Positions 9,707 through 53,075 of a DNA stretch of 64,000 nucleotides are shown here, one piece after another. The DNA comes from a virus. A program made the position numbers and the translations under genes. The stretch covers positions 99,935 to 163,934 of the IMG/VR virus record IMGVR_UViG_3300024346_000008; one strand, 5' to 3'. The notes beneath the pieces are model-generated. The model made no database searches and was not told the origin of the DNA. It saw only the letters and a program-made list of their open reading frames with translations. Each line of letters opens with the position of its first letter. Position 1 is the first letter of the stretch.

Positions 9707-10356
9707 AACGTATTATATTGAGTTTTAATTTGATGAAACTGCTCTGTTGACAAGTATTGCAGAGGTTTGTGATATCCCAAGGTTCCTAGTTGGAAAATTG
9801 TTTCCACACTAAACTGTGAGGCGACATCACGAGGCGCCAATTTTCCAATATTGAAGTCGTGCATTTTCTCACAGAAAAAAACATCTTCGCCTTTATTATA
9901 TTCCCATTTGAATCGGTTAAGTACTTCTAACATTATTTCTGGAGTTCTTAGTGATAACCCACCGTTACAACAAAATGGATAATATACTGGATGGTTTGTA
10001 GGTAACGGTGCCCCAACAAAATCATATTCATAAAATTCTTCAATCCCATTTCGTAAGAGGCCACTGTCTCTTTGAAATATTAAAATTTTATCGTAGTTGG
10101 TAAAATGTTTCCAAAAAAATTGTCCATCTTCGTGCGTTAATAACATATTATATCCATGCACAGTATTATCCATCAAAGTTACAGGTAATACATTTACATT
10201 CGGTAATAAAGAAGAATACTGGTTGATATATTTATCATCAGTGAATATAAAATATTCAGTATTTTCTGGTAGATGTGGTACGTGGTTCTGAAACGTACTT
10301 ACCATATCTTCGAAAAAACGTGTTTCTACGATTGCTGCACATAATTTAACTGTCAT
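9703..10356 (-). CDS. DUF5672-like putative glycosyltransferase
   Basis: LIFQRDS, YDFVGAP, NGGLSLR, EDVFF and FSVE...GYHK motifs. Confidence 0.78.
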   Translation of the reverse strand: MTVKLCAAIVETRFFEDMVSTFQNHVPHLPENTEYFIFTDDKYINQYSSLLPNVNVLPVTLMDNTVHGYNMLLTHEDGQFFWKHFTNYDKILIFQRDSGLLRNGIEEFYEYDFVGAPLPTNHPVYYPFCCNGGLSLRTPEIMLEVLNRFKWEYNKGEDVFFCEKMHDFNIGKLAPRDVASQFSVETIFQLGTLGYHKPLQYLSTEQFHQIKTQYNTL

Positions 10357-11318
10357 AAATATGAAATATCTGGTCTTCCGGTTCTTGCTCGGTCAGATAC
10401 CTCTTTGGTTTTAAAATTTATCCCCGCATATTTTTCATATTGTTCAATAGTTCGTTCACTTCCAATTCCATAAATTCCCATTGGAATTTCATTTGTTTGC
10501 ATCAAAAGACTTTCTACTCTTTTAATACTTATATTTTGTAAATGACCCATTTCTCGATAATTGTCATCTGAATAAACTTTTCTGTATGCTCGGTCATGTT
10601 TATGATATGCCATATTTTGTCTTGTAGCATAATGATTATATCCATGTGTAAAAGATCGAACCGCCAAGGTAATTTCTTCACCTAGAAAAAACATATCTGG
10701 GTCATACGGAACATCTCGTATCCATTTACTAGGCCCAAATAAATTACATGCGGTTAAAAAACTATTTAATTCAGGTTGTTCTATATTATCTCTGACATCA
10801 AACATCTGCAACAATAAACTTCCATAAAACTCCGTTGCTCTAGGAACTGCTCGCTTGGAAGAATCTCCCGCCCATTCATTGTTACCGTCTGGTGGGTTCC
10901 ACTGAGATGCTGCACACGATAACAGTGCCTTACTATCGTTCGTTTGATAAAATTGATCAATTAAAATTTCATCCCAATTCTTAATCACAGACATGTGTGA
11001 ATCAATTAACCAAAAAAATTTTTCATCTGTGCGTAGTTCAAACGCTAAACTTCTTGCCCAACACGCTCCCTTTGATTCTTTTGCTGGAACTTTTATTACT
11101 TTCATATTTACACCAAATGAAGGAAGTTTATCAACTTCTTCATCGCCACGTTGCCAACAAATACCTAACGTAATATTTTCCGGGTACTTGGCATTTTTGA
11201 CAATCGACTCAATTGTATATGAAAGTAATGGATCACGGTAACTTGCTATATTTACAAATATTTTATTAGTTGATTGATCTATCATATTGGTAATATCCTT
11301 TCCATACGGTTTATCCAT
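10353..11318 (-). CDS. GT60-family (Skp1/polypeptide alpha-GlcNAc transferase-like) glycosyltransferase, copy 2 (likely start 11285)
   Basis: IFVNIASYRDP, SKGACWAR, IDSH and FLGEEI motifs; ATGA overlap with copy 1. Confidence 0.85.
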   Translation of the reverse strand: MDKPYGKDITNMIDQSTNKIFVNIASYRDPLLSYTIESIVKNAKYPENITLGICWQRGDEEVDKLPSFGVNMKVIKVPAKESKGACWARSLAFELRTDEKFFWLIDSHMSVIKNWDEILIDQFYQTNDSKALLSCAASQWNPPDGNNEWAGDSSKRAVPRATEFYGSLLLQMFDVRDNIEQPELNSFLTACNLFGPSKWIRDVPYDPDMFFLGEEITLAVRSFTHGYNHYATRQNMAYHKHDRAYRKVYSDDNYREMGHLQNISIKRVESLLMQTNEIPMGIYGIGSERTIEQYEKYAGINFKTKEVSDRARTGRPDISYL

Positions 11319-12538
11319 CCTTTTGATTTTGAATGGGGCCAGAATATATATTTGTAAGGTTTTTTAATTGTATTAAATTCTCTCCAAATTTTAATATATT
11401 CTTGACTATTTGTTTTTAATTGCTGTATTTCATCTTCCGATACATCTTTCCGATATAATTCCATTCCATCAATATCTTCAAACGCTGTTACCCATACATC
11501 GTAATCATTTTCTGGCACTTCGTTAAATCCAATATCAATACAATGTTTAAAAATCGTAAGCCACGACTTTTCGTATTCCTCTTCTACAGAATACTGCGGA
11601 TTTGGGGGTAATTTATTATCAAGTGTATATTGTTGAACTGCTCGTTTTTTAAATGAGATTCCGGCATATTTTTCATATTCATTCAATGTTCTGATAGTAC
11701 CGAATCCATATTTCCCAAAGTCTATATTCTGAACTTCGCCATCCATACCAAACAATGTTCTATTTCGTAAATGTGATGTTTTGTTTAGTTCACCCCACGT
11801 TGGATCATCGTCCCATTGCTTAGTTCTTCCTTTTCGTGTATATTCATGCCACGCTATAATTTTGTGTGGATGGAATAAGTCATATCCATGAGTATATGCT
11901 CGTGCAGCAATTGATATTTCTTCTCCATGAAAATAATATTTAGGATCGTGCTGAACTTCGTTTGCAAATTGACCAAGTGTAAATGCAAAATGCGCAGAAT
12001 AAAATCTTGCGGGAATTGGGCAGTCCAATTCAGCGTAGTTGTCAATACTGGATGGTAGAAAAAATACCGCACCTTCTGGAATGAATCTATCAAAATTCAT
12101 TTTCCATGGCGTTGCTTCTCTACCAGCGGGGTCATTTTCTGGATTAAATGATGATATATAACTGGTTAGTAAAGGCTTGGCATATCCTTTTTGCTGAAGT
12201 TGCTTTACCATAGTAATACATTCTACGTCCCAGTTTTTTATAAATCTATGGTGGGAGTCTAGTTGTAATGTATATTTTTCATTATTATATAACTGCTGTA
12301 TCTTATTTCGTGCCCAACAGGCCCCTTTAGATTCTGTAAATGGGATATCTAATATTTTGAATCTAGGGTCATCCGCAAATTCTTTTAGTGAATCCCACGT
12401 ATCGTCAACAGAATGTTGCCACGCAATTCCAAATATTAAATTTTTTGGATATTTTGCGTTACTTAAACAATCCTTTATCGTTGGAATTAATTGTGGATCA
12501 CGATATGATGCAATTTGAATAAAAATTGTATTTTTCAT
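11282..12538 (-). CDS. GT60-family glycosyltransferase, copy 1, with extra C-terminal domain
   Basis: IFIQIASYRDP, SKGACWAR, LQLDSHHRF, FHGEEI and HEYTR motifs. Confidence 0.88.
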   Translation of the reverse strand: MKNTIFIQIASYRDPQLIPTIKDCLSNAKYPKNLIFGIAWQHSVDDTWDSLKEFADDPRFKILDIPFTESKGACWARNKIQQLYNNEKYTLQLDSHHRFIKNWDVECITMVKQLQQKGYAKPLLTSYISSFNPENDPAGREATPWKMNFDRFIPEGAVFFLPSSIDNYAELDCPIPARFYSAHFAFTLGQFANEVQHDPKYYFHGEEISIAARAYTHGYDLFHPHKIIAWHEYTRKGRTKQWDDDPTWGELNKTSHLRNRTLFGMDGEVQNIDFGKYGFGTIRTLNEYEKYAGISFKKRAVQQYTLDNKLPPNPQYSVEEEYEKSWLTIFKHCIDIGFNEVPENDYDVWVTAFEDIDGMELYRKDVSEDEIQQLKTNSQEYIKIWREFNTIKKPYKYIFWPHSKSKGWINRMERILPI

Positions 12539-38732: not shown

Positions 38733-39221
38733 TTAATAATTGAGTACGCAGTAATCGGGTTGAATTTCAAGTGTAATTTCTACTTGCGTATCTTCACTCC
38801 ACGCCATATCACCAAATGTTGCACTTGTAATTTGTGCGCCTTTGATAATCCACTCTTCAACTTTGTCACCCACTGGACCAAGAATATTGAGTGTTAAATC
38901 TTTCTTGTAAAATTCAAGATATCCATCACGACCAGTTACCGATTCGTGATGAAGACGAACCCATTCCATGACTGCTTGAGCGCCAGAAGGAACGATGGGA
39001 TCATATAACGTTAATTGCATCGTACCCCATTTACTTTTACCCTTCACATATCGTTGTAAATTGATATGATCAAGAGGTTTTGCTTCTTGGGTTAATTTGG
39101 GACGAGATACTTTATTTACAAGATATGAAGGAATTCCATCCATATAGAGGATGAAACGATTCTTCATTTTTGGTTCAAATGCTGTGAAGAACAGTTCTTG
39201 TTCTGATACTAGGTTTGCCAT
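38733..39221 (-). CDS. gp19: Tail tube protein (T4 gp19-like)
   Basis: FEPKMKNRF, YVKGKSKW, LYDPI.PSGAQAVMEW, YKKD, GPVGDKVEEW and DYCVLNY; follows the sheath gene. Confidence 0.9.
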   Translation of the reverse strand: MANLVSEQELFFTAFEPKMKNRFILYMDGIPSYLVNKVSRPKLTQEAKPLDHINLQRYVKGKSKWGTMQLTLYDPIVPSGAQAVMEWVRLHHESVTGRDGYLEFYKKDLTLNILGPVGDKVEEWIIKGAQITSATFGDMAWSEDTQVEITLEIQPDYCVLNY

Positions 39222-39247
39222 GTATAATCTCCGAAAGGATATCTAAC

Positions 39248-39256
39248 TATAAATAT
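39248..39256 (-). promoter_or_regulatory. Putative late promoter motif ATATTTATA (tail tube)
   Basis: About 27 nt upstream of ATG 39221. Confidence 0.65.
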
Positions 39257-39263
39257 AAGAAGG

Positions 39264-39308
39264 TTGAAAATTGTGAGGGGAGATTTTACCTCCCCCCACG
39301 TTTCTCAA
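39264..39308 (-). terminator. Imperfect GC-rich hairpin between sheath and tube genes
   Basis: gtggggggagg...tctcccctcac on the minus strand, followed by aattttc. Confidence 0.5.
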
Positions 39309-39309
39309 T

Positions 39310-41952
39310 TTACGCAGTTGGGAACGTTGCGCCAGTTGGGAGAACATTGAAATCAAGGACGATGAATTCTGCTGTTCTTGTGGGTTGTAGATAGAGTTGT
39401 CCATAAAGGATATTTCTATCAATCACATCAGGCGTGTTATTTGTTTCATCCATTACCACACGGAATGCGTACAATCCAGAACGTTCTTGTACACTTGCGA
39501 GGTACGGGTTCACAATGTTGAGGAAACGATTACGTGTTGCTTCAACATTCTGTTCGAACACTAAATAACGTGCCGAACTTGCAATATACTTCTTCACCGC
39601 GATTAACAAACGACGAACGTTCACACGATCAAGCGCTGATGAACGGCGTTGTAATGTCTTCTGACCCCATACACAGATACCTTGTCCTGGGAACTGTGCA
39701 ATTGGGTTAACCTTTCCTTCATATAGTGTATCACGACTTGCTTGCGGTAAGCGAACCTTGACACCGACTGCACTTGCAATGCCACCACGATTTAATCCAG
39801 CGGGTGCAAACCATTCTGCTGCAACATTGTCGTTGTAGGCATAAATTTCTGGAAGAATTACTGATGGTGGAACCCAAATTAACTTATTGGTGTTCGTATC
39901 AATAACTCGTAACCACGGATAGTATGTTGCTGCGTAATTACTATCAATTTCACCTGCCTTTGCCGTTGCTGTGGCAAGAGTTGCGGTTAATCCAGTAGTA
40001 TCCATGATGTAGAATGCATCTCCACGGTCTTCACATAATGTTAGTGCAGAATCTGCGATATATGAATGATATTCATAAATAACGCCTGGAAGTACTAATA
40101 AGTTAAAATCAAACTGGTCAGGATTACTGATTGCGTTCAATGCTTTCTTATATGATACTGAGCCTGCTGATACCGAGGTTGATAAGTTGAACCCTTGACT
40201 ATTGGTAGCAACGATGTCACCACCCATATTAATATCACGTGCGGGATTTAACCCATCAAATCCACCTTGGAATGCCACTGAGAACTTACGATAGATGAAA
40301 CTATCTTCGTCTGACAATGAGATTGCCTTTGGTACTGTACCATTCGGTACATCCACAACATTTTCAAGATTAAATGCTGTTCCAACATTTACTGATCCCG
40401 ATGGGATTGGACCAAGATAAGAATTATTGGTGTCATTTCCAGCATCAAAATTCCAACCATAATAATATTTCTTGTCAATTGATTGTGTAGTATATCCTTC
40501 GACGCCATTATCAAACCAACGACTTGTGACATAATCCGGTGCCGTTAATTGTACGGCTGGCGCAGATAATGTTGATTCATATGTGGCAAATCCAAATGGA
40601 AGCGCAGTTTCTGGAATCTGTGCGTCGGTCATTTCTACCCAAATATATTGTGAGTTATTTGGGAAGTCACCTTGATAATACATTTCACCAGTTACCGTAT
40701 CTTCGGTTGGTGCACTGTTACCAATTACCCGTGCAATATACTGTGGACTATCCGGGTCAAGATTTACATTGTCAAATTGTTCTAATACTTCCGACCGTGC
40801 ATCTGTATCATTGTATCTACGAACAAAAATTGTAAATGTACCGAAGTTATATTCAACATCTCCACTAGCCTTCATGTTTGCAAACGATACTTTAATTTCC
40901 TTATTTGCAGAATTACCATCACCTAATGTGTGAATCTTGAAAAGATCTAACTTAGTTCCACCCAACGTCTGTGATTGAATCCACGGAGTAAATGCATGCT
41001 TGTAAACCCCGTGTGTTGCACCATTGAAATTTAATGCAGTACTCGATGTTTCTGCCGACATTACAGAACTAGCTAGTCTTGCTGCATCGGTTAGCGGATA
41101 TGAAGTTACGGTGGTAAGAACACCAGTTGCACTTGAACTCACAATAAATACTGTGTTTGTTGACGAGATTGCAGTATATTGCGATAGTAACGTTGTTCCA
41201 AAGTTGATTCCTGAGCCACTGACGGTAATTTCTGTTAGTTTGGTTACATCTAACCCAGCAAGAGTTGCAGTTGGTACTACATATTTTGTAAGACTTCCTG
41301 TTGAAACTGTACTTGGTACGTCACCAGTAACCAAAGATTGAGACGCCACTGCTAATCCACCCGTAACTGCGGTAGTTAACATTGAATTTAACGCGGCTTC
41401 AGGAAAAATTGTATAAATATATGAGTTTTGTGTTGTACTCGGAGTTGACGCAAAATAGTCTTGAAATGAATTTGATTGCCCTTCTACTGAAGTTAATCCA
41501 CTTTGACTAATATTTGTTCCGCCAGATGCAGTCACTGATAAACTAAATCCAGTTGATACTCCAACCGCCGTAATATTCGTAAGGGTATTTCCAGTACTAC
41601 TAGGATGTAATACTGCATATACTTTCTTACCTGCTGAACCTGATGCGTAAAGTACTGCAGATTTTGTGGTAGCTGGGTCATATCCTGTTGTTCCCAACAC
41701 ACGAACGATTGTGGCAACGCCAGATTCACGGAGATAATTTTTTGCTGATAATCCCGTGTAATGATTGGTATCTGCTTCGCCAAATCTGGTAACATATTCC
41801 TGTTGACCACGTACTATGGTCGGTATAAACGCCGGACCTTTTGGTGTGGGTCCAATAAATGCCGCCCCGATTTCACTGATACCTTGAGTTAGGAAGCTTA
41901 AATCCTTTTCTCTGGTAAATACGCCAGGGGAAACAATTCTTTCATTTGCCAT
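39310..41952 (-). CDS. gp18: Contractile tail sheath protein (T4 gp18-like)
   Basis: SPGVFTREKD, YYPW, WFAPAGLNRG, WGQKTL, RVNVRRL, FEQN and PTRTAEFI motifs. Confidence 0.96.
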   Translation of the reverse strand: MANERIVSPGVFTREKDLSFLTQGISEIGAAFIGPTPKGPAFIPTIVRGQQEYVTRFGEADTNHYTGLSAKNYLRESGVATIVRVLGTTGYDPATTKSAVLYASGSAGKKVYAVLHPSSTGNTLTNITAVGVSTGFSLSVTASGGTNISQSGLTSVEGQSNSFQDYFASTPSTTQNSYIYTIFPEAALNSMLTTAVTGGLAVASQSLVTGDVPSTVSTGSLTKYVVPTATLAGLDVTKLTEITVSGSGINFGTTLLSQYTAISSTNTVFIVSSSATGVLTTVTSYPLTDAARLASSVMSAETSSTALNFNGATHGVYKHAFTPWIQSQTLGGTKLDLFKIHTLGDGNSANKEIKVSFANMKASGDVEYNFGTFTIFVRRYNDTDARSEVLEQFDNVNLDPDSPQYIARVIGNSAPTEDTVTGEMYYQGDFPNNSQYIWVEMTDAQIPETALPFGFATYESTLSAPAVQLTAPDYVTSRWFDNGVEGYTTQSIDKKYYYGWNFDAGNDTNNSYLGPIPSGSVNVGTAFNLENVVDVPNGTVPKAISLSDEDSFIYRKFSVAFQGGFDGLNPARDINMGGDIVATNSQGFNLSTSVSAGSVSYKKALNAISNPDQFDFNLLVLPGVIYEYHSYIADSALTLCEDRGDAFYIMDTTGLTATLATATAKAGEIDSNYAATYYPWLRVIDTNTNKLIWVPPSVILPEIYAYNDNVAAEWFAPAGLNRGGIASAVGVKVRLPQASRDTLYEGKVNPIAQFPGQGICVWGQKTLQRRSSALDRVNVRRLLIAVKKYIASSARYLVFEQNVEATRNRFLNIVNPYLASVQERSGLYAFRVVMDETNNTPDVIDRNILYGQLYLQPTRTAEFIVLDFNVLPTGATFPTA

Positions 41953-41975
41953 ACGAGTCCTCCAAATGGGTTATA

Positions 41976-42236
41976 TTATTCTGATACTTCCCCGGTTTCC
42001 ATATTGATGTTACCAGTTCCATATGTTTGTTGCAACTTCTCAAATAAAACCCTTTCTTTTGTTTGAAACTCTACAAATTTATCTTGTTGAGTTTTAATGT
42101 CAGAAGATACCGTATTTAATTGATTCTCTAACATAAATTTATTTAGTGTTAATTCGCCAATTGTCGTAATCACTTCAAGAAGCATTTCACGCAATTTTTG
42201 AATTTCTAATAATTCTGCGTCTGTAACTTTTTTCAT
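41976..42236 (-). CDS. Small coiled-coil protein
   Basis: 86 aa ending YGTGNINMETGE; GAGG SD. Confidence 0.7.
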   Translation of the reverse strand: MKKVTDAELLEIQKLREMLLEVITTIGELTLNKFMLENQLNTVSSDIKTQQDKFVEFQTKERVLFEKLQQTYGTGNINMETGEVSE

Positions 42237-42345
42237 ACATTCCTCGTAAACTTATAGATTGATTATATATCATACATATATAATTTCGTGTCAAAACTTA
42301 TGTAATCTTATTAATAAATATCATTCATTATTTTCAAACTTAATA

Positions 42346-43134
42346 TTATACAAGATTTGTAACAATTTCTGTATCGAATACCACTTTCTTTGGAGAATAT
42401 TGCAATCGTGTGGTTGCCGCACGATTCCCATTTCTATCTAAGGCACTCTGTGGGAGGATATATGCTTTTACGTCAATTGAAAATTTATTACGAACCAATC
42501 TATCATTTGTCGCAGGAAGGTCCGTTAATTGTTCAAATTGGGTAATTTTTGTGATAAACTTATAGTTATTTGCTTCACCCCAATATTCATCACTTTCAAA
42601 CGAAATATTTTCCACCACCCCATTCATCTGTTCCATATATTCCGTCCATATCATTGCTTCGTAGGTAAAGTCATAATAATCTGGAATCATCGTAGTATGA
42701 TATATTTGACTTGGTGTGATTCTATTTTGTGCCGTAAATCTATCATAAATATTACGAGAATTCCATCCCGTTTTAAACGTATATTGTTGATATTTGTTCG
42801 TCGGTGATGTCATTGAATTTTTCTTCATCATAGAACGTTTTACCATAATAATTGGTAACATAATTTTTCCGTTCTTATCACGAAGGTTGCCATCTTGCTG
42901 TGCACTTTTCCATCGTTCTGGGTTTCCGTAAATAACGGGAATTTGTATCTGCTTCCCGTCTTGTGAAATTACTGGTTTAATTTTTGTTTGTAAGTATTTT
43001 AGAATAGCATTATCAATGGTATATAATCCCACTGCTACCGGCGAACTTACGCCCGGTACATGTTTATTATCATTTCCCCGATTATATCGGTTGGGTAATG
43101 TGAGATTATTTCTATCAAACGTCGGTGTACTCAT
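42346..43134 (-). CDS. gp15: Tail completion / sheath stabiliser (T4 gp15-like)
   Basis: IPVIYG.PERW, LPII, PDYYDFTYE..IWT.YMEQMN..VE.I; position after the neck genes. Confidence 0.75.
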   Translation of the reverse strand: MSTPTFDRNNLTLPNRYNRGNDNKHVPGVSSPVAVGLYTIDNAILKYLQTKIKPVISQDGKQIQIPVIYGNPERWKSAQQDGNLRDKNGKIMLPIIMVKRSMMKKNSMTSPTNKYQQYTFKTGWNSRNIYDRFTAQNRITPSQIYHTTMIPDYYDFTYEAMIWTEYMEQMNGVVENISFESDEYWGEANNYKFITKITQFEQLTDLPATNDRLVRNKFSIDVKAYILPQSALDRNGNRAATTRLQYSPKKVVFDTEIVTNLV

Positions 43135-43589
43135 GTGTGGGTTTCCTCAATATTAAGGCCACTCTTACGAGTTAAGTGTGTTTCACAAATAATATTGTGA
43201 TTATATTCAGGTCTTCCCGCAACTAGTTGAATTTCGTTCGTATTATCAATTTCATAATAGTTTTCATTATATTTGATGATATCGCCAACGTCTGGATACA
43301 CATCCACATCTTCTAATATTTTTCGTACAAATCGAAATTCTACACCAGGTTGGTTCGTATCATACCCAAATCCTTCTGCCGCAGGTTGCGTTTTCGGATA
43401 TTTTATCAATGCGTTCAAACTAATACCACGGTATCGTGGTTTCGTCAGTGATTCCCCGTAAATATTTACATTAACTACCTCATGTATTATTTTATATAAT
43501 ACAACTTCTACGTCCACCACATCCACTACGATTTCTCGATTGATGTGTTGGAAGAATAGAAAATCCCGTTCGGATACGAATCTTGGCAT
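43131..43589 (-). CDS. gp14: Head closure / neck protein (T4 gp14-like)
   Basis: NIYGES, FG, P.VGDII.Y...YYEI motifs; follows the gp13-like gene. Confidence 0.75.
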   Translation of the reverse strand: MPRFVSERDFLFFQHINREIVVDVVDVEVVLYKIIHEVVNVNIYGESLTKPRYRGISLNALIKYPKTQPAAEGFGYDTNQPGVEFRFVRKILEDVDVYPDVGDIIKYNENYYEIDNTNEIQLVAGRPEYNHNIICETHLTRKSGLNIEETHT

Positions 43590-43592
43590 ATA

Positions 43593-44759
43593 TTATAAAA
43601 TGTAGAAAGGCACTGGAATATACTTAAACATTGCTTGCATTGCTTCTGCATTTTCCATATGTTTTTTCATTTGTGCTTGGTGACCAGTTTGTTCCAAGGT
43701 TTCCCGAATTTCTTTAAGTAAATTATCTTTTTCTTGTGACGCTTCTCTACGAAGTGCATCACCATCCATGCGTATTTGTGCATCAGGTATCGGAATATTT
43801 TCATATTTAGAACGAATATTACCCAACACTTCCTTTGCTAACGCAAGTGTATAACGATATACCCAATTTCTTCCAATACTATTGATATTTTTGTACTGAA
43901 TATTGTCATATGGAATATTGGAGAAGTCGGATACCGTACTATTTTCTGACCCTGACTGTAATAATGCGTTTCCGCTTTGTTTATCATTAACCACAACATA
44001 ATCAAACCAGATAGTGGTGTCTTTGGTGAAAATTGGCGTGAATCGTATGATATTATTGGAGACAGAAAAGCTATATTGACTTTTACGAATCATATCATTG
44101 ACTTCAATTGCTTGAATACGAAGTAAATCTTCGAATGCAGGCATCATCACGAATGTTACCGGTGGAGAATATCCATCAAACCCAAACTCACTCATGAGAT
44201 TTGTTAACCCAAGACCCGTGGTTGCAAATGGGTCATAGTATCGTGCAATTGCGGGTGGCATTTGATGATATATTTTACGAATTTCAATTGCTGACCCACT
44301 TTCTTGTGGGTCTGCCCACAATTTTTTGAGGTCATACGATTGCGTATATGCAGAGGTAGCAATAAATCCTTTTTTTACAGTCACACTTCCGCCACTTTCT
44401 GCTTCCGTACCATATTGAGCAGATAATTTTACCAGTTGCGGCAGTGGTGTCGATAAAATATTTCGTTGGGTAATATTTGTCGATGTACTCATGCCCTGCA
44501 TGGACAACATATGTTCACGGGCATTAAATTGATTGACTTGGTTACTATAGGTGGTAATGGCCTCTTCCAGACACGTATACAGTTGACGATGTGTGAGTTC
44601 AACATCCACAACAGGATAACCCAACCGTCTTGCTACAAATGACGCAACTTGGGGAGCTTCCGTTTGAAACTCCGCATCATTATCATAAAATCCAAATGGT
44701 GTTAAATTATATGGATTAATTGGCGCTTCTTCAAAAATAATTGGTTCACGATTCTGCAT
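43593..44759 (-). CDS. gp13: Neck / head-tail adaptor (T4 gp13-like)
   Basis: RRLGYPVVDVEL..QL..C.EEA; WV.RYTLAL.KE.LG..RSKY..IP.P. Confidence 0.85.
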   Translation of the reverse strand: MQNREPIIFEEAPINPYNLTPFGFYDNDAEFQTEAPQVASFVARRLGYPVVDVELTHRQLYTCLEEAITTYSNQVNQFNAREHMLSMQGMSTSTNITQRNILSTPLPQLVKLSAQYGTEAESGGSVTVKKGFIATSAYTQSYDLKKLWADPQESGSAIEIRKIYHQMPPAIARYYDPFATTGLGLTNLMSEFGFDGYSPPVTFVMMPAFEDLLRIQAIEVNDMIRKSQYSFSVSNNIIRFTPIFTKDTTIWFDYVVVNDKQSGNALLQSGSENSTVSDFSNIPYDNIQYKNINSIGRNWVYRYTLALAKEVLGNIRSKYENIPIPDAQIRMDGDALRREASQEKDNLLKEIRETLEQTGHQAQMKKHMENAEAMQAMFKYIPVPFYIL

Positions 44760-44785
44760 ACAAGCCCTCTATTAGAGTCATATAC

Positions 44786-44795
44786 TATAAATATC
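44786..44795 (-). promoter_or_regulatory. Putative late promoter motif GATATTTATA (neck genes)
   Basis: About 27 nt upstream of ATG 44759, just downstream of the capsid-gene terminator. Confidence 0.7.
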
Positions 44796-44829
44796 AAAAT
44801 AGTTTATATAACCATAACTTTATAACAAT

Positions 44830-44857
44830 AAAAAGGGGTGACCTTTCGGCCACCCCC
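44830..44857 (-). terminator. Rho-independent terminator after the major capsid gene
   Basis: Minus strand reads GGGGTGGCC-GAAA-GGTCACCCC-TTTTT (GNRA loop, U-tract). Confidence 0.9.
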
Positions 44858-44886
44858 AATTATCACTATTGTTACCAAGTTACATC

Positions 44887-46515
44887 TTAGACGAGGTTGA
44901 GCTTGTCGATGTAGATCTTGCCGAAGAATTCGGGGCGAACAACCTTCTTCGCGTAACGTGTCATCACGCCACGACGAGGTGTGAAGTTCTGTGGATCGTA
45001 CACAAGTGGTGTCATGATCAATGGAATGTATGGTGCGTACACTGCGCCCGTTTCCAAGAATTGGTTACCACGGAAGCCCATCAACATCACGTTTTCTGTC
45101 ATGTATGGGTTCTTGTATACGGTGAAACGGTTCTGGAAGGAACCAATCTTCGTTACACCGGCTGCAAATTCCATCTTGTCGCCGTCGGTTCCGGCTGCAA
45201 AGCCAGGGATGGTTTCAAGAATTGTTGCAACAGTTGGTGATACGACTGCAAAGTTAGCACCGCCACGCATCGTTAATTGATGAATCTTGTTGCTCACCTT
45301 CTGCATCTTCTGACCAAGCGTTTGGAACCAAGTCATGTTGGTCCATGCCGTGCCGTAGAATGAACTTGCGGCAAATGCTCCACCACTTCCAGGTTGCTGA
45401 CCATTCCAGACTGAACCAATTTCTGCTGACCAGTATTCCGTTGTGGTTGCTGGTGCTGCATTAATTAACATGTCAAGAATTTCAAGGTCAATTTCCATTG
45501 CCACATAGTCTGACAACATACTAGTCAATTCTGCTTCTGCATCTACTGAATGGTATGCGTTCAAGTCTTGTGCAAGTTCTGGTGACCATACTGCCTTCAA
45601 CTTACGTGTCTTGGCAACAATGGTTTCCGAACGAAGTTCCAAATCAATTTCTGGAATCTGGAGGTCCGTTCCTGCATTAATACCGGCTGCTGCCGTAGTA
45701 CCACGAAGCGGATTCGTATCTTCGAAATCACCACGTGCTGTATCAACAGGTTGCTTGGTGTATGTAACACTGTTTAATACTGCGTTTGCAGTAGTAGTAA
45801 CGATAAACGTGACATTGGTTCCGTCGTACTTGGTGAATTCTGGAAGCACTGCCGAACCGAAGTTTGCGCCACTGCCACTTGGTACGAATGAACGAACTGC
45901 TAAGAAGTCAGCATTAGGTAAAACTACATTCGACACCGTGAACGAACGAAGACTACCAGTTGCAACATAATCTTGGTTGAAATTTACATCGGAAAATGCA
46001 ACCGACCCAGTAGTAACAGCTAATGACGATGTAATTTGATCATTTAATGAATAACCAAAGCGACCTGCGCCATATAGACCACCTGCTGCTTGGTTACCAA
46101 ACCCACCCCATGTACTATTTGATGCACTACCATAAAGGGATTGACCTAATGTTTGACCGTTTGATGTTGAACCATACTTGAAGTCCATGTAGAACACAAG
46201 TCCAGCAGGTAAGTTCATTGGTTGCACAGACACAAAGTTCTTTGCAGCAATTGAACCGAAGACCTTACGAACTAACGGAAGAGCAACACCGGCCCAGTTT
46301 TCACCACTGGTACCAGCTGCGTTCGTCTTACTGTTTTCTGAGAGAAGCTGTGTTGCTTGGTTTTCAAGCATTACTGCCATACCCTGCTTTTCATAGCCCT
46401 TCAATCCTTCTAGGAGGCCTGAACCTTCCCACTTACCTGCTAATTTACGGGTCTGGTCGATAACGTGCTTGTGTGCACTACCCGCTTCGTTGATAAATTC
46501 TGATACATCTGACAT
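44887..46515 (-). CDS. gp23: Major capsid protein (T4 gp23-like)
   Basis: KW..SGLLEG, LENQ, LPLVR, VQPM..P.GLVFY, KTRKLKA.WS.ELAQDL.A.H..DAEAEL, YAPY.PL and F.P..G.MTRY motifs; AAGGAG SD. Confidence 0.97.
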   Translation of the reverse strand: MSDVSEFINEAGSAHKHVIDQTRKLAGKWEGSGLLEGLKGYEKQGMAVMLENQATQLLSENSKTNAAGTSGENWAGVALPLVRKVFGSIAAKNFVSVQPMNLPAGLVFYMDFKYGSTSNGQTLGQSLYGSASNSTWGGFGNQAAGGLYGAGRFGYSLNDQITSSLAVTTGSVAFSDVNFNQDYVATGSLRSFTVSNVVLPNADFLAVRSFVPSGSGANFGSAVLPEFTKYDGTNVTFIVTTTANAVLNSVTYTKQPVDTARGDFEDTNPLRGTTAAAGINAGTDLQIPEIDLELRSETIVAKTRKLKAVWSPELAQDLNAYHSVDAEAELTSMLSDYVAMEIDLEILDMLINAAPATTTEYWSAEIGSVWNGQQPGSGGAFAASSFYGTAWTNMTWFQTLGQKMQKVSNKIHQLTMRGGANFAVVSPTVATILETIPGFAAGTDGDKMEFAAGVTKIGSFQNRFTVYKNPYMTENVMLMGFRGNQFLETGAVYAPYIPLIMTPLVYDPQNFTPRRGVMTRYAKKVVRPEFFGKIYIDKLNLV

Positions 46516-46535
46516 ATGTTATATCTCCTTAAAAA

Positions 46536-47720
46536 TTAAATGATTCCTGCGAGTTCTTGTAATCTTTTTGCTACCGTGTTTTCCACGATAACTTGCGACT
46601 TTGGAGCCGTACTGGGAACTGCCTTAGAGGCTAATCCTTCAGTAACAACTTTCTTACGTGATGCGTTGAACGTCTTCACTGCTGCGGAAAGATTTTCAAC
46701 TAATGTTGTATAAACAATCTTAACTTCACGAACGGTTGTTGCACGGTCAAATGATTCAACAATGCGAACTTTCTGTTCGTTGGTTAAACTATTTTTATGG
46801 AACATTTTGTTGGTGAAGAGTAACTTTGCATTAAGTAAGTTAACTTCTTGTAAACGGCCACGGAGAATGTTCACTGCTTCTCTGTACTGTGCCATTTCGC
46901 CCTTGAGTCTCGCAAGTTTATCAGCCATTGCCGTTTTTGCATCGGGAGCAACTTTTTCATCGCCCATTTCCGCATCGTCGGCTTCAAGTTCTGCAAGAAT
47001 TTCTTCAAGATCAATTTCTTCATCATCACCTTCTTCTGCGCCCATCGGTGCTTCCATTGGTGCTTCACCTTCTGTCTTTGGATTGCCAATTTTAGACGAA
47101 TCAGCAGGTACTTCTGGTCCTTCTTCGCCGGCCGGTTCGCTTTCTGGATATTCATCCTTTTCGGCGCCATGTTCCTTACCCGAAAGTGCAGCAATATCTT
47201 CTTCCAATTCACGAATTACTTCGTCAAGGTCAAAATCACTTTCTGACCAATCATCGTACCAATCCGTTGAACTATCTGTGTTTGCTTCTGGTCCATGACC
47301 AATGTCTGAAGTGGCTTCTGCGTCGGCAGTTGGCATCTTGTTATCTGATCCACCGATTGCTGACGTATTAGCAGGGAACTCTTTTCCACCACTAACGTTT
47401 TCGGCATCTTGCCACGGCTTTTCTGATGTTGCTTCTTTCTTCACATCGCCGCCAGTCTTTGCTGCAACTGCCTGCTTCATCGGTTCTTCAGTATCACCGT
47501 CCTTATCCGCATCAAGAAAGTCTGGCTTTGCACTTTCTTCGACTTCATCTTCGTCGTTAGCCATATCAGCTTCAACACGAAGACGGCGTGAAATCATATC
47601 ACGAATCTGTGGGGTTATTGCTTCTTCTAAAACCAATTTTGCATTTGCTACGGCAGTTTCACGAACTGCTTCTGCATCCGCAATAGCTTGTTTTAAAAGC
47701 TTGTTGGTAATCTGTGTCAT
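46536..47720 (-). CDS. gp22: Prohead core scaffolding protein (T4 gp22-like)
   Basis: Highly acidic with coiled-coil ends (AIADAEAVRETA.ANAK..LEE; EVNLLNAKLL; RLQELAGI); immediately upstream of the capsid gene. Confidence 0.82.
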   Translation of the reverse strand: MTQITNKLLKQAIADAEAVRETAVANAKLVLEEAITPQIRDMISRRLRVEADMANDEDEVEESAKPDFLDADKDGDTEEPMKQAVAAKTGGDVKKEATSEKPWQDAENVSGGKEFPANTSAIGGSDNKMPTADAEATSDIGHGPEANTDSSTDWYDDWSESDFDLDEVIRELEEDIAALSGKEHGAEKDEYPESEPAGEEGPEVPADSSKIGNPKTEGEAPMEAPMGAEEGDDEEIDLEEILAELEADDAEMGDEKVAPDAKTAMADKLARLKGEMAQYREAVNILRGRLQEVNLLNAKLLFTNKMFHKNSLTNEQKVRIVESFDRATTVREVKIVYTTLVENLSAAVKTFNASRKKVVTEGLASKAVPSTAPKSQVIVENTVAKRLQELAGII

Positions 47721-47813
47721 AAAATTAAACTCCTGAAAGGAATAGAACAGATATTTTATCTGTTATTAAATATTAAATTTACCACTAATATTAAAGATTA
47801 GTGTTTACTATTA

Positions 47814-47822
47814 TATAAATAT
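47814..47822 (-). promoter_or_regulatory. Putative late promoter motif ATATTTATA (scaffold/capsid)
   Basis: About 94 nt upstream of the scaffold ATG, followed by two small hairpins. Confidence 0.6.
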
Positions 47823-47841
47823 AATGTTAATTTCTAAAACG

Positions 47842-48057
47842 TTAATTATCGTATTGTTTTTGTCGTGCAACTCTTTTTTCTTCACGTTTTTTACGACGAA
47901 ATGCTTCTTGACGTTTAAATGCTTTCTTTTTTGATGGTTTTAGATAATGTTCTCTGTTACGAAGTTCCTGCAACAGTTCCGATTTCTTGACCATCTTGGT
48001 GAATACTTTTAATGCTTTGTTGAGTTCATCTTTTCCATCCTTTACAATAACTTCCAT
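47842..48057 (-). CDS. rpsU: Ribosomal protein bS21 homologue
   Basis: V.VKDG...LNKALKVF.K.V.KS.LLQELRNREHYLKPSKKK...R..A.RR is the bS21 signature; GGAGG SD. Confidence 0.9.
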   Translation of the reverse strand: MEVIVKDGKDELNKALKVFTKMVKKSELLQELRNREHYLKPSKKKAFKRQEAFRRKKREEKRVARQKQYDN

Positions 48058-48067
48058 ACTGCCTCCA

Positions 48068-48754
48068 TTAACTTTTTTGTTTTGGAACTAATCGTCCATT
48101 TTGTGATGTGTGTGTTACTTTCTTATTCTTACCATATCGACCAAATCCTAAATAGTCGAGTCCCAACTGCTGTGCTTGTTTTGCAATTTCACTGTCTTCT
48201 GCTGCTGGTTTTGATGTAGCTGGAGTAGATGGGGTGGTTGATGGAGTATCTGGTGCCGGATGTTCTTTTGCTTGATGTACTAGTATCTTTGCATCGGGAA
48301 ATTCTGTTCTCAGTGCTTTTACTGCTTGTACATTTTTTGGAGAATCATCAATAAAGGCAACCTTATCATATCCATCTTTTATATGTTTTCTAATATATGC
48401 CGCTTTCTTTTCTGGATTTGCATCTCCCAGTGCAGCAATAGATACACCGGAAGTAATTCCATGCATCTTTAAAAATTGTGCAACAGGACGAGTGTGACCT
48501 CGTGCGGTTAACACAGTAATTTTATCGGCTCGACCAATTGCTTGTTTTAACAGTTTGACAAATCGTTGAATTGGTTTTGGATTAATTAATTTATCAAATT
48601 CTGAGAAGTCAAACTTATCCCCTGGTTGCTCATCGTATACGGCAAATGCAGCGGGGTCCATTTCAATTCGTTTTCCGCCACGGGTAAGAAAGATTTTGGA
48701 ATCGGTCTGTGCCAATGTGTCATCAAAATCACTGACAAATAATGTTTTACCCAT
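48068..48754 (-). CDS. HAD-superfamily phosphatase (Pnkp-phosphatase-like)
   Basis: DFDDTL (DxDxT), VLTAR, K and FIDDS..N motifs; Pro/Thr linker and a small C-terminal GLDYLGFGRYG domain. Confidence 0.82.
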   Translation of the reverse strand: MGKTLFVSDFDDTLAQTDSKIFLTRGGKRIEMDPAAFAVYDEQPGDKFDFSEFDKLINPKPIQRFVKLLKQAIGRADKITVLTARGHTRPVAQFLKMHGITSGVSIAALGDANPEKKAAYIRKHIKDGYDKVAFIDDSPKNVQAVKALRTEFPDAKILVHQAKEHPAPDTPSTTPSTPATSKPAAEDSEIAKQAQQLGLDYLGFGRYGKNKKVTHTSQNGRLVPKQKS

Positions 48755-48757
48755 AGA

Positions 48758-49153
48758 TTAGTAAGTTAAAACTTTATAGGATACGGCAACCATTTCATTT
48801 AATGAACTTTGTAATAATGTTTTTTTATTTTGTTCATTTAACTTATTCATTACGGTTACCAACATTTGGGCGGTAAAGACATCGACCAATTGCCCTTTTA
48901 CTTGCGCAGGAATCTTCGTGATTGCAATTTCTCGTAACGTTTCTTCCGTATATACGGGAGAATGCAAAATGGTATGCAATATTTCTTTGAGAGTATCGTG
49001 TGAGGTAGACGCGTATTTTTTTGCATCCGTAGACGATATACTCTTTGCAATCTTTTTAATTTGCGCACTTACTTTGCCAGCAGGAATTTTACCTGTTTGG
49101 TATGCGTGGACAATGCCAAATAATCGTTGTTGAGATTTGCTTTTTGATGGCAT
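48758..49153 (-). CDS. Hypothetical protein, DUF3008-like N-terminus
   Basis: MPSKSKSQQRLFG...AKS....AKKYAST.H motif. Confidence 0.6.
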   Translation of the reverse strand: MPSKSKSQQRLFGIVHAYQTGKIPAGKVSAQIKKIAKSISSTDAKKYASTSHDTLKEILHTILHSPVYTEETLREIAITKIPAQVKGQLVDVFTAQMLVTVMNKLNEQNKKTLLQSSLNEMVAVSYKVLTY

Positions 49154-49154
49154 G

Positions 49155-49739
49155 TTACTTTACTTCACTCAAAAAGTCGTGAATTAACTTATTGATATTA
49201 TCATATGGTGCAGCAACTTGTTGCATCACATTTTCGGTAATAAACGCACCCATTGTGGATGGATTACTGACGATATCAAAACAAATTAAGGCAAAGTCTT
49301 CTTGGACTTCTACCGTGTTTTCACTCATTTGTTTGACCGATCCCATACCACGGGAACTCACTCCGAGTTTTATATTATTTCGAATTAATTCCCGAACAAT
49401 GTTTCCTGTTGGAGTCGTGAGAATTTCAATGTTACCCCGTACATCATCACCTTCGGTCCAGAGTTCAACGATGTTACAACACACGTTCTTTAAATTCACT
49501 ACTGGACTTTCTGGGTGGTCTAGTTCACCCAGCGCTCGTCGTTGTGTCACAAAGTTTTGTTTATAGACACTTGCTTCACGCATTAAAATTTCTTTGGGAT
49601 AGACACGCCCATTTTGATTTTTTGCGTTAGCACGTTGTAATACGACATTACGAAGGATTAGTGGTTTATTACCATCTAACGCTTCCGTTAAAAGTTCTTT
49701 ATTATATTGAAGTTCTGTGTATTCACATAGTAATGCCAT
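49155..49739 (-). CDS. gp21: Prohead core protease (T4 gp21-like)
   Basis: N.NGRVYP, ALGELDHP, ILTTP.G, GVSSRG.GS and D.VSNPS..GA motifs. Confidence 0.95.
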   Translation of the reverse strand: MALLCEYTELQYNKELLTEALDGNKPLILRNVVLQRANAKNQNGRVYPKEILMREASVYKQNFVTQRRALGELDHPESPVVNLKNVCCNIVELWTEGDDVRGNIEILTTPTGNIVRELIRNNIKLGVSSRGMGSVKQMSENTVEVQEDFALICFDIVSNPSTMGAFITENVMQQVAAPYDNINKLIHDFLSEVK

Positions 49740-49740
49740 A

Positions 49741-50247
49741 TTAATTTCTCATGTCGCGCAAACGTGCCGCTAGTTCAGTAAGTTTACCTTCCAACTTGAC
49801 CATTTGTGTAGTCGTGCGTTTCCATAAATTATCATTAGATAATCCAGATTCTTTCTTTAAACGACTGTTCATTTTTAAGGCACGTTCAACCAACTTCAAT
49901 TGTCTATTTAATTCAGACATTGCTTGACCAATTTTTTGATGTGGTTGACGAGTTTGATCGTTACGGTAGGAATAATAATTCTCTTGTAATGTTTTTACGC
50001 CTTCTTGAATTGCTTCAAATTTTTCTTGAAGTTTATCGCCCGGCGTAACATCTTTTGCACCACGATTGGTCAAGGAATATCCAATAGATTTTGCCATTTT
50101 TTTAATATGATTTGCATTACTATGTTTGTCCCCGACAAATGCATTAGGTGTTAAATATCCCGCAACGTTTCCGGTTGTTGATATTTCATTTAAATTTTCA
50201 CGGATATGTTTACGAATAATTTCACGTAATCTCTCTTCAATATTCAT
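49741..50247 (-). CDS. Hypothetical head-associated protein
   Basis: LNEISTTGNVAGYLTPNAF motif after an LxE site; head module context. Confidence 0.65.
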   Translation of the reverse strand: MNIEERLREIIRKHIRENLNEISTTGNVAGYLTPNAFVGDKHSNANHIKKMAKSIGYSLTNRGAKDVTPGDKLQEKFEAIQEGVKTLQENYYSYRNDQTRQPHQKIGQAMSELNRQLKLVERALKMNSRLKKESGLSNDNLWKRTTTQMVKLEGKLTELAARLRDMRN

Positions 50248-50250
50248 GGT

Positions 50251-51129
50251 TTATCTCAGTGAATTAAGTTCGTGTGAAATCTGATATGCAATCAATAACG
50301 CCGTGATATAGTTATCTTTCACTTGATTCTTTTGCTGAATCTGTTGTAGTTGATGTACTACTTCATTGACTTTAATCTTCGTGACTTCATCAGTAATTTT
50401 ATTAGAATTCTTTTTAATATCACGAATTAAACTGATGGCTTCTGTGGACACATATGTACCAAACTTTTCTACGTTCGTTCCATTATTAATATATTCACGA
50501 AGTAAATTCTTTTGTTTATCACTGAAATTACTGTACTTTTCATTGAAACTTTCTAACAAGAATTTATAGGAAAGATACCGAATTTCTTCTGGTTGATCTT
50601 TTAACATTGCCGAATAATTTGATTCTTTGACAATTTGTTCTTCTTTCAGTTCACCCTTTAAATGTTCAACAATCACAAATCGTGCGGCAACCATTTCGTC
50701 AATTTGCATATATACCGATTCGTCAATATTTGACGCACTGGTTGTTTCAAATAATTTGTAAATGGATGCGTGAACTTTATAGGAAGGAACTCGACCAGAC
50801 ATAAATTGTTTCAAATCACAATTCTGCTTAATTTCTCGTATCAATAGAAATTTTTGTGCATTTAGTAATTTTTCATTTAATGATGCCCGTCGTTGTAATA
50901 CGACATCTAACATATTAAATGCTTTACCTTCTGAGAGTTTCGGTGCATTAAAGAAAGAACGATACAATTGTAATTCTTTTCCTAATTCCGATTTTGAGTG
51001 GAAATGTTCACGCATCATTTTGACTGCAAAACTATCTGGTTTGCCGTCGAGAACATCTGCGGCAACTTTTCTGACTAATAGTTCAAACAGAATGCCTGTG
51101 TTCTTAATTTTGTTGTGCCGTATATTCAT
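50251..51129 (-). CDS. Conserved hypothetical head-module protein
   Basis: IRHNKIKNTGILFELL...FNEKYS......K.LLREYI; lies between portal and protease. Confidence 0.7.
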   Translation of the reverse strand: MNIRHNKIKNTGILFELLVRKVAADVLDGKPDSFAVKMMREHFHSKSELGKELQLYRSFFNAPKLSEGKAFNMLDVVLQRRASLNEKLLNAQKFLLIREIKQNCDLKQFMSGRVPSYKVHASIYKLFETTSASNIDESVYMQIDEMVAARFVIVEHLKGELKEEQIVKESNYSAMLKDQPEEIRYLSYKFLLESFNEKYSNFSDKQKNLLREYINNGTNVEKFGTYVSTEAISLIRDIKKNSNKITDEVTKIKVNEVVHQLQQIQQKNQVKDNYITALLIAYQISHELNSLR

Positions 51130-51191
51130 ATGTTATCCGTATTGAGACGAGTAAACAACCACCATATATAAGTAAATATAATCAAAATATA

Positions 51192-53075
51192 TTAATCCTC
51201 TACTTTATCGTCAGATGACAACTGTTCTGCAATAATTTGTTTGTATTTACTAGTATTTTTCATTTGTAATTTATCTAAGAAATCTTTTGCTTCTAACGAT
51301 AAGGTAGACCGCTTGTACCGTTTGGTATTTTCTTTATGTCCTAATGGGTCACGGCCAAGCGGATGTGCATCAGTACCAAATTTTAATCCTTCTCTTGGAC
51401 GACCACCTCTATTTTTCATAAGTGCTTCTTCTAGTTCCTCATCAACTTCTTCGTCAACAGAACTGTCTTCTAGACTCTGTAAAATTTGATCTACATCGTC
51501 AATTTGAGCTTCTTGATCGTCTGCACTAACATCTCCTTCCGGCGGAACTTCCCCTTCTGGTGGTACTCCTCCTTCTGGTGGCATTCCACCCATTTGTGGG
51601 TCTTGAGGTTGTGCCATTGCTTGTTGTTCTTGCTGCCGTTTTACATCTTCGATAATCTTCTTTCGTTCTTCAACAATTTCATCATCTGATAATTCAAGAA
51701 TGTGATTGTAGACCCAATCTTGAGAAAGAAGAATAGTTTGTCCACCGGTCATTTGTTGCGCCAATCCAAACTTTTCTTTCCAGATATTAATTTTTTCTTG
51801 TTCGTATAATGTGGAAGGATTCGTTAACGAGAGTTCAAAGTTGACGAGTTTTTCATCCGTAAATCCTTGGACATATAAATGAATGATGGCAATCTTGGTA
51901 AGTTCCGATACCATGATGCGTTGAATACGTTCAATAGTTCGTGCAAATCGCACATCTTGTGCTGCCAATGTTGCCTTTCCATTAATATCTTCTTCATATC
52001 CAATAAAGGACTTAGGTACTTTAAATGCCGCAAGAAGTTTTTTACGGAGATATTCAATGTCTTCGATTGCATTGAATTGTAATCCTTGCATGGTTTCAAT
52101 TTCGGTTCCACTATCCTTACCACGCACTGGAAGATAGAAATCTTCGGTAATATTCATCATATTATATCGAAGATTATAATCGCCCGTTTTCGGGTCTACC
52201 AACGGCGTTTTCTTGGAACGGTCAATGATACGATTCATATATGTATCAACTTCGGCGGGAGGAATGTTGCCAATATCAATTTTGAACTTCCGTTTGTCGG
52301 GTGCTCTCATGATACGATGAATTAACATTGCGTCTTCCATGAGTTGCAATTGTTTCCAGACACGACGACCACCTTCAATCATGGCTTTTCCATACGGAAG
52401 AAAGTTTGTATCTGATAATAAACGAAAATGTGCAATTTCGTAGTTATCAAAATCTTTCTTACCTAATTGTAAGAAATCGGTATCAATGGAGAATCTTACG
52501 GAGAATGGATTGCCCGGTTGTTCACCTTCGACACGAATAGTTTCATAGACAGATAATGGAACGGCATTTACGATACCATATTCAGGATCAATGTCCAGAT
52601 ATAAAAATAAATCTCCGTATTTTGCCATGTTGCGCACCCACGGCCAGAGATTAAATTCTACATTGAGAATATCGTAAAATAAATTATGGAGAATTTCTTG
52701 AACTTGTGTATCATCGGTTTTAATCGTGAGAATGCGGTCAAACTCATCCTTGACTGTACTTTCATCCGCATAAATATCTAATACTGACGCAATGATGGGG
52801 TCATTGTCCATCATGTCATAATCACGGAACAACTGTAATCGTGCTCCTTGGAATGAAGCTGCCGCTTCATACCGACCATGTGCTGACCCATATCCACCTG
52901 TGGCAGAATTATATACACGATGGTACCGATCAACACCTCGTCTGTTAACAAACGATTGAATTTGATCCGTATCTGCAATACGAAGTTTTTTTCCACCCAC
53001 ATTTCGTACAATTGTGTTCGTGGAAAAAAGTTTCTTTAGTCTACCAAAAATTCCATTGTTACTAGTATCTGCCAT
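51192..53075 (-). CDS. gp20: Portal protein (T4 gp20-like)
   Basis: QL.LMEDA.LI.RI.RAP..R.F.ID.GN, EDF.LPVRG..SGTEI.T..G and L.A.KVP motifs; acidic C-terminal tail. Confidence 0.96.
   Translation of the reverse strand: MADTSNNGIFGRLKKLFSTNTIVRNVGGKKLRIADTDQIQSFVNRRGVDRYHRVYNSATGGYGSAHGRYEAAASFQGARLQLFRDYDMMDNDPIIASVLDIYADESTVKDEFDRILTIKTDDTQVQEILHNLFYDILNVEFNLWPWVRNMAKYGDLFLYLDIDPEYGIVNAVPLSVYETIRVEGEQPGNPFSVRFSIDTDFLQLGKKDFDNYEIAHFRLLSDTNFLPYGKAMIEGGRRVWKQLQLMEDAMLIHRIMRAPDKRKFKIDIGNIPPAEVDTYMNRIIDRSKKTPLVDPKTGDYNLRYNMMNITEDFYLPVRGKDSGTEIETMQGLQFNAIEDIEYLRKKLLAAFKVPKSFIGYEEDINGKATLAAQDVRFARTIERIQRIMVSELTKIAIIHLYVQGFTDEKLVNFELSLTNPSTLYEQEKINIWKEKFGLAQQMTGGQTILLSQDWVYNHILELSDDEIVEERKKIIEDVKRQQEQQAMAQPQDPQMGGMPPEGGVPPEGEVPPEGDVSADDQEAQIDDVDQILQSLEDSSVDEEVDEELEEALMKNRGGRPREGLKFGTDAHPLGRDPLGHKENTKRYKRSTLSLEAKDFLDKLQMKNTSKYKQIIAEQLSSDDKVED

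Follow-up and report, generated by a model that had tools for sequence, protein, structure and literature searches.

A tail sheath protein of an uncultured T4-like lake phage carries a probable copy of the capsid protein insertion domain

The stretch of DNA analyzed here (hereafter the window) is the final 64 kb of a 163,934-bp IMG/VR virus record (IMGVR_UViG_3300024346_000008; estimated to be 90% complete) from an uncultured T4-like lake phage, and it encodes both a gp18-like tail sheath protein and a gp23-like major capsid protein (MCP). The sheath was found to carry an inserted domain that is homologous to the insertion domain of the MCP. Considering all the evidence, the best explanation, which we regard as highly probable, is that the sheath contains a diverged copy of the MCP domain, acquired by a single transfer and kept as a folding domain. 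The evolutionary part of this explanation is well supported.

Homology of the sheath insert and the capsid insertion domain

The sheath gene (39310–41952, minus strand) encodes 880 amino acids (aa), of which aa 192–294 (41071–41379, minus strand) form the inserted domain, as delimited by the indel against orthologues devoid of it and by homology to the MCP domain. The MCP gene (44887–46515, minus strand) encodes 542 aa, and its insertion domain (aa 158–262; 45730–46044, minus strand) is present throughout the clade. An initial annotation of this DNA had proposed that two peptides within these domains are homologous. Both are exact minus-strand translations (41077–41355, sheath aa 200–292; 45733–46023, MCP aa 165–261), the plus strand of the same intervals giving only stops on translation, and the proposal was borne out. 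Indeed, BLASTP between the full proteins returned one significant segment only (sheath 192–283 against MCP 157–251), with 37% identity over 95 aa and an E-value of 1e-11 with compositional adjustment.

Chance or common composition is one of three alternatives, besides independent uptake from a third source and transfer from sheath to MCP, that we consider together to be hardly credible. Although both segments have a Ser/Thr/Val-rich character, which would favor such an artifact, their Smith–Waterman score of 140 was far above that of residue shuffles (34 ± 6; z about 17–18), and in the shuffle test that the initial annotation had suggested this score was reached by 0 of 2000 shuffles for each partner (0/4000 in total); the E-value after compositional adjustment likewise speaks against chance. 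Moreover, five sheath and five MCP copies aligned collinearly over about 100 aa with one 3-aa indel and 14 invariant columns, including T-G-S-L, S-G-S-G-x-[ND]-F, and T-N-x-x-F-x-V, and the sheath inserts of six phages each matched 115–118 of 122 MCP domains at E < 1e-3.

Exactly two copies of the domain were detected by a six-frame scan with a hidden Markov model in the window, as well as in the whole 163,934-bp record, and no third copy was found in either by profile search. Neither segment belongs to a named family as judged by Pfam (no match at E ≤ 0.1) and PHROG (no match), and the ESM Atlas feature search with the domain returned unnamed or weak clusters only.

The capsid protein and its insertion domain

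The MCP open reading frame (ORF) matched Pfam Gp23 (PF07068) with an E-value of 1.7e-73 and 248.6 bits (cutoff, 24.4), and T4 gp23 was recovered by phmmer against the PDB (2.5e-29), by Foldseek of the predicted model (7e-9), and by hhalign (probability 99.4), both sequence and fold identifying a gp23-like MCP. The stretches alignable to T4 gp23 are aa 69–117 and 277–522, the domain falling within the gap between them (aa 118–276), and in the global hhalign alignment it is collinear with T4 gp23 residues of about 135–240. Since the flanking stretches align to T4 gp23 and the profile alignment is collinear, the MCP domain occupies the place that the insertion domain has in T4. A comparison of the domain profile with T4 gp23 by hhalign revealed no sequence similarity to that insertion domain itself (E 0.38, over 13 columns and in the wrong place).

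The closest named relatives of the phage are Microcystis phage Mel-JY01, LR756508 (an uncultured 484-kb assembly), Flavobacterium phage immuto, and Rhodothermus phage RM378, all with <60% protein identity, and the MCPs of all four carry an aligned domain with the conserved motifs. A regional search yielded 229 MCP clusters with the domain, which was present in all MCPs of the clade; among 50,697 phage records, the sole tblastn match of the MCP segment was the capsid of Mel-JY01. On these alignments, the MCP segment is a regular insertion domain of the MCP and the ancestral copy. In the full-length MCP model, the domain had a predicted local distance difference test score (pLDDT) of 77–91, the remainder of the monomer being poorly modeled.

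As a side observation, a 164-aa protein of the representative library (P0137) combined a match to the MCP domain with weak Pfam matches to MMPL and citrate synthase fragments, and is probably a chimeric or mis-assembled metagenomic ORF.

The sheath protein and relatives without the insert

The sheath ORF matched Pfam Phage_sheath_1 and Phage_sheath_1C (49.2 and 41.9 bits, both above the cutoff) and PHROG 23, and its C-terminal 210 aa (aa 668–878) aligned to T4 gp18 in the PDB (E 4.6e-42). The two families that mark a contractile tail sheath (PF04984 and PF17482) were accompanied by a neighboring gp19-like tube gene, as expected for such a protein. The insert is a clean block of about 101 aa placed between a conserved N-terminal segment (aa 1–87) and the C-terminal core.

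The initial annotation had further claimed that this is a true inserted domain, and had proposed that orthologues in sister phages be searched for the lack of exactly this block. Such orthologues exist. The sheath of L009, a 139-kb contig, has 779 aa, is 73% identical overall to that of the window, and lacks one block of 102 alignment columns that corresponds to window aa 192–294; the MCP of the same contig (P0010) carries the domain, which is 51% identical to the sheath copy of the window. Including L009, 29 sheath genes from related contigs (766–796 aa) are devoid of the insert, and this clean indel confirms the claim. Some of these relatives are very close, as over the C-terminal part (aa 301–880) the insert-less L043 is 95% identical to the window sheath, and L039 and L052/L055 are 90–91% identical.

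On the other hand, at least 14 further contigs, originating from JGI, ENA, Logan, and IMG/VR samples, have insert-bearing sheaths (879–884 aa), and owing to this recurrence in several sample sources the insert is not an assembly artifact. In at least 15 contigs, drawn from 12 or more samples, the reading frame runs uninterrupted through the insert. Overall, the insert was carried by 10 of the 33 full-length sheath genes compared, and a scan of IMG/VR with the domain profile identified 56 loci (8 in the sheath gene and 48 in the MCP gene). Among the four named relatives (Mel-JY01, LR756508, immuto, and RM378), no sheath carried the domain, and tblastn of the sheath segment against the 50,697 phage records gave no match.

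Three sheath genes deserve separate mention. Those at L029:11966–14338 and L032:5293–7668 are insert-less, 6–7 aa longer than other insert-less sheaths, and keep the first insert residues (S-G-L...A-S-Q) at the junction; these residues mark what reads as a secondary, imprecise deletion of the insert. The gene at L026:2598–5258 has a divergent sheath insert, 45% identical to that of the window and with an internal 10-aa deletion, a divergence that shows an apparently deep diversity of the sheath copy in its own right. Additionally, the region at 40963–41592 (minus strand; sheath aa about 121–330) was a hypervariable outer region in every pair compared, with nucleotide identities of 52–80%, whereas the ends of the gene reached 85–98% in close pairs. 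The insert (aa 195–290) likewise had a raised synonymous divergence, which suggests a mosaic, recombining region.

Origin and later history of the sheath copy

In a tree of 126 domain sequences, the sheath copies formed one clade (100 in the Shimodaira–Hasegawa-like approximate likelihood ratio test, SH-aLRT). The stem of this clade is long, at 1.62 substitutions per site, and it branches from within the MCP domains of the near clade and not with those of distant relatives. This tree indicates a single MCP-to-sheath transfer, with rapid change thereafter. Of the two copies, that of the sheath is derived and that of the MCP ancestral, because the MCP domain is found clade-wide and in outgroups and the sheath copy is absent in relatives; a transfer in the opposite direction, from sheath to MCP, is at odds with this distribution, in which the domain is universal in capsids and the sheath copy is restricted to a nested subset.

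Independent uptake of the domain by both proteins from a third source would agree with the fact that the MCP of the own genome is not the closest relative of the sheath copies. However, a profile search among 1.84 billion representative proteins revealed no third protein family with the domain; most of the 47 hits had MCP flanks, about ten were short fragments with a domain-only match and no classifiable flank, and two look like repeat artifacts.

With regard to the donor, the best MCP matches of the sheath copies were other members of the clade (P0010, P0063, P0103, and P0121; 41–53% identity), identity to the MCP of the own genome being 29–46%. Nevertheless, when the sheath copies were constrained to group with the MCP domains of the window lineage, the resulting tree was equally likely (approximately unbiased, AU, test; p 0.52). 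Consequently, of the intragenomic domain transfer proposed in the initial annotation, the passage from MCP to sheath is supported, whereas a donor within the same genome has no support from best hits and, given the AU result, is possible.

The later history of the insert was not simply one of vertical inheritance. In a sheath-core tree from which the insert columns were removed, insert presence required five changes by parsimony, at least three of them across well-supported branches. Within the sheath clade of the window (clade A, comprising the window, L010, L012, and insert-less relatives), the synonymous divergence (dS) of the inserts was 1.5–2.1 against 0.4–0.9 in the flanks, and the inserts had 68–69% nucleotide identity, nearly as low as between clades (64–65%). 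Furthermore, the insert-less alleles of clade A have the same junction as more distant insert-less sheaths. It is because of this excess of insert dS over the flanks, together with the common junction, that plain vertical descent does not suffice. The simplest reading is that the insert behaves as a cassette in the hypervariable outer region (aa about 120–330), which would be exchanged by homologous recombination among co-occurring relatives and sometimes deleted.

The proposed course of events would begin with illegitimate recombination, presumably involving the two late genes, which share an orientation, within one phage or between co-infecting relatives. The copy would then have been retained as an independently folding domain under purifying selection, and homologous recombination, along with one or more secondary deletions, would subsequently have moved the cassette or taken it out.

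Fold, selection, and composition

The isolated sheath insert, modeled with AlphaFold2, is predicted to fold on its own into a mainly beta structure (pLDDT 83.7; predicted template modeling score 0.73), and its strands and helices agree in order and register, at aligned positions, with the corresponding elements of the MCP domain as modeled in the full-length MCP. Foldseek of the domain model against the PDB gave no hit with E < 1, T4 gp23/gp24 not being matched, and its hits to immunoglobulin (Ig) domains were insignificant (E 1.4 and above; template modeling score, TM, 0.26). With VIA-align the best Z was 4.8, which is background level, and T4 gp23/gp24 was not in the top 50. The best hit in BFVD was a viral protein of 523 aa (probability 0.95, TMq 0.55, E 0.12), whose length equals that of the RM378 MCP.

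The sheath inserts differ among themselves by 25–55% in sequence. Their ratio of nonsynonymous to synonymous divergence (dN/dS) mostly fell at 0.09–0.22, with two pairs higher (0.27 and 0.39), and was 0.17 for L016–L017, the pair with the least saturation; since dS is saturated in most pairs, these values are rough. They indicate purifying selection on the insert, apparently somewhat weaker than on the sheath core. In composition, Ser and Thr together make up 35% of the sheath copies (range, 30–42%) against 24 ± 3% of the 122 MCP copies, and charged residues 4–9% against 11%.

A neutral passenger, tolerated in a permissive loop and with no role, would account for the patchy presence of the insert, for the secondary deletion or deletions (at least one, in L029/L032), and for the 29 related sheath genes devoid of it. 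A passenger is not, however, expected to keep its frame open across so many contigs and samples, nor to show a dN/dS of 0.1–0.2 and a confident predicted fold despite the divergence among copies, and we give this explanation little credence.

Possible function of the insert

Since close relatives lack the insert, it cannot be required for sheath assembly and contraction, and on this comparison it would be dispensable for both. In solved and modeled sheaths, additional domains point outward from the tube, and contraction does not depend on them (PMC9230969; PMC11972413). The position of the insert in the chain matches that of such domains, and for this reason, along with its dispensability, it is inferred by analogy to be an outward-facing accessory module on the tail. 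In this context, the loss of charge and the gain of Ser and Thr fit a solvent-exposed surface without a fixed protein partner better than a lattice contact. The insert may accordingly be pictured as an accessory surface module resembling Ig-like domains, by which the tail would be coated with a neutral surface, similar to that of the head and rich in hydroxyl groups, that would bind weakly to the environment or shield the tail from it; this proposal is plausible, and we hold it tentatively, at somewhat less than even chances. Such a module would have no part in contraction.

Another role that has to be considered is that of a lattice stabilizer, in which the sheath copy would bridge neighboring sheath subunits and stiffen the extended tail, as the T4 domain bridges gp23. 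MCP insertion domains of T4 and phi29 do bridge neighbors and stabilize capsids (PMC3185693), and tail cementing has been proposed for additional sheath domains (PMC9230969). Nevertheless, close relatives manage without the insert, which is the most variable part of the gene; its charge loss and Ser/Thr richness are unlike a specific protein interface; and the external sheath domain of phiTE touches no neighbor (PMC11972413). A stabilizing role thus seems improbable.

The initial annotation had favored a common surface function, and the domain could indeed serve head and tail alike, either docking one and the same decoration protein or being O-glycosylated by the enzymes of the phage. In agreement with this, the same phage has two PF11397 N-acetylglucosamine (GlcNAc)-transferase genes (11282–12538, minus strand, E 2.9e-74; 10353–11318, minus strand, E 3.9e-52), Ser and Thr are enriched to 30–42% in the sheath copies, and the turn motif SGSG-x-[ND]-F is preserved in both copies. 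However, the positions conserved in both copies resemble those of a protein core or a turn, no candidate decoration gene visibly co-varies with the insert in the 8–10 kb flanks, and the transferases also occur in the relative G004, whose sheath is insert-less; this alternative is, in our view, unlikely. A more definite version, in which the domain would be the acceptor or docking surface of a phage surface-modification system, either O-GlcNAc-type glycosylation by the PF11397 enzymes (encoded 30 kb away) or a decoration protein recognizing the MCP domain, is a little less likely still. If it were true, the sheath copy would continue the coat of the head onto the tail, and its hypervariability and presence or absence would reflect selection on that coat.

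PF11397 homologues were present in the related IMG/VR records G001, G002, and G004. A specific link between insert and glycosylation was considered and rejected, as PF11397 occurred in two insert-bearing relatives and one insert-less relative, two fragments being uninformative; because they are present in the insert-less relative too, the GlcNAc-transferases give no specific support to such a link.

Several points weigh against the explanation preferred here, namely a transferred MCP domain retained as a surface module. The position of the sheath clade within the MCP-domain tree is weakly supported (88), too weakly to settle the donor lineage or to date the transfer. The PDB, VIA-align, and BFVD searches gave no significant structural neighbor from which a fold class could be assigned, and saturation of dS blurs the estimate of constraint. 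As for function, the outward location on the sheath rests on analogy with other sheaths, and the sole functional lead, the GlcNAc-transferases, is not specific to insert-bearing phages.

Gene neighborhood

Every gene in the head-tail part of the window is on the minus strand. The order of genes at 38733–53075 (minus strand) is portal, prohead protease, scaffold-like, ribosomal protein S21 homologue, MCP, gp13-like, gp15-like, sheath, and tube, and differs from that of T4, in which the sheath and tube genes stand before the portal and head genes. The interval between MCP and sheath holds the gp13-like gene, the gp15-like gene, and small ORFs. The gp15-like tail sheath stabilizer gene (42346–43134, minus strand) was recognized by a PF16724 match under the curated cutoff (E 1e-4), and the same weak match was seen in relatives. 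Downstream of the sheath, the gp19-like tail tube gene (38733–39221, minus strand) also had a Pfam match under the curated cutoff (PF06841, E 7e-4), and a tail tube Gp19 is annotated at the equivalent position in Mel-JY01.

Two further features of this region were observed. A 71-aa ribosomal protein S21 homologue (47842–48057, minus strand; PF01165, E 7.6e-12) lies within the head-gene block, and a homologue occupies the equivalent place in the relatives L009, L010, L012, and L014. ORFs of the GIY-YIG/NUMOD3 homing-endonuclease type are variably present in the head-tail module of relatives (L010:2052–2723, L012:13298–14200, and L015:251–877), and the window has none at the corresponding places.

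Significance and comparison with known systems

Phage structural proteins are known to gain accessory domains, but where a particular domain of a sheath came from can hardly ever be traced. In the present case, sequence data reveal the donor, namely the insertion domain of the MCP, as well as the loop that received the copy, its single origin, and its subsequent history in the population. The case shows that a domain viewed as integral to a gp23-type capsid protein and tied into its lattice is able to fold, and to be maintained, in a helical assembly unrelated to the capsid. Moreover, sheath genes with and without the insert, otherwise >90% identical, constitute a natural allele pair for testing the roles of outer sheath domains. 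Should head and tail share a ligand or a modification, the finding would also bear on surface presentation by environmental phages.

The insertion domain of T4 gp23/gp24 is a chitin-binding-like domain added to the HK97 fold. In T4 gp23 it stabilizes the capsid by bridging neighboring subunits within the capsomer (PMC3185693). Like T4 gp23, the MCP of the window has a domain of about 100 aa added at this point of the chain, with the core aligning on both sides. No similarity to the T4 domain was detectable, however, by sequence (the hhalign comparison above), and the isolated model gave no structural hit to T4 gp23/gp24. In the literature searched, we found no report of a T4-type insertion domain copy outside the MCP.

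It is established that sheaths gain domains and that Ig-like domains move horizontally from one virion protein to another. The Ig-like domains of tailed phages (Big_2, I-set, and FN3) are described as promiscuous accessory modules (Fraser et al., 2006, as related in PMC9230969), for which weak surface adhesion has been proposed in that same account (PMC9230969). Similarly, the domain of the window is small, beta-rich, dispensable, horizontally exchanged, variably present, and carried by different classes of virion protein. It differs in having no match to an Ig-like Pfam family (as noted, to no Pfam family at E ≤ 0.1) and in that the only other home of the sheath domain is the MCP of one phage clade. 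The sheath copy is also internal and not terminal, and its donor is integral to a capsid protein and not a free-moving module. The case is therefore distinct from established domain movement, since no known promiscuous family is involved, the only other home is a capsid protein, and the event is young and still polymorphic.

Finally, as in multi-domain sheaths (Evseev et al., 2022, PMC9230969; phiTE D3, PMC11972413), the insert lies between the conserved N-terminal part and the C-terminal core, and, like the added domains of those proteins, it varies in number among relatives and is not needed for contraction. In the literature searched, no account was found of a sheath that has taken over the insertion domain of an MCP. 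In contrast to the multi-domain sheaths, the source can be named here, as the MCP domain, and the gain is recent and polymorphic among sheath genes that are >90% identical.

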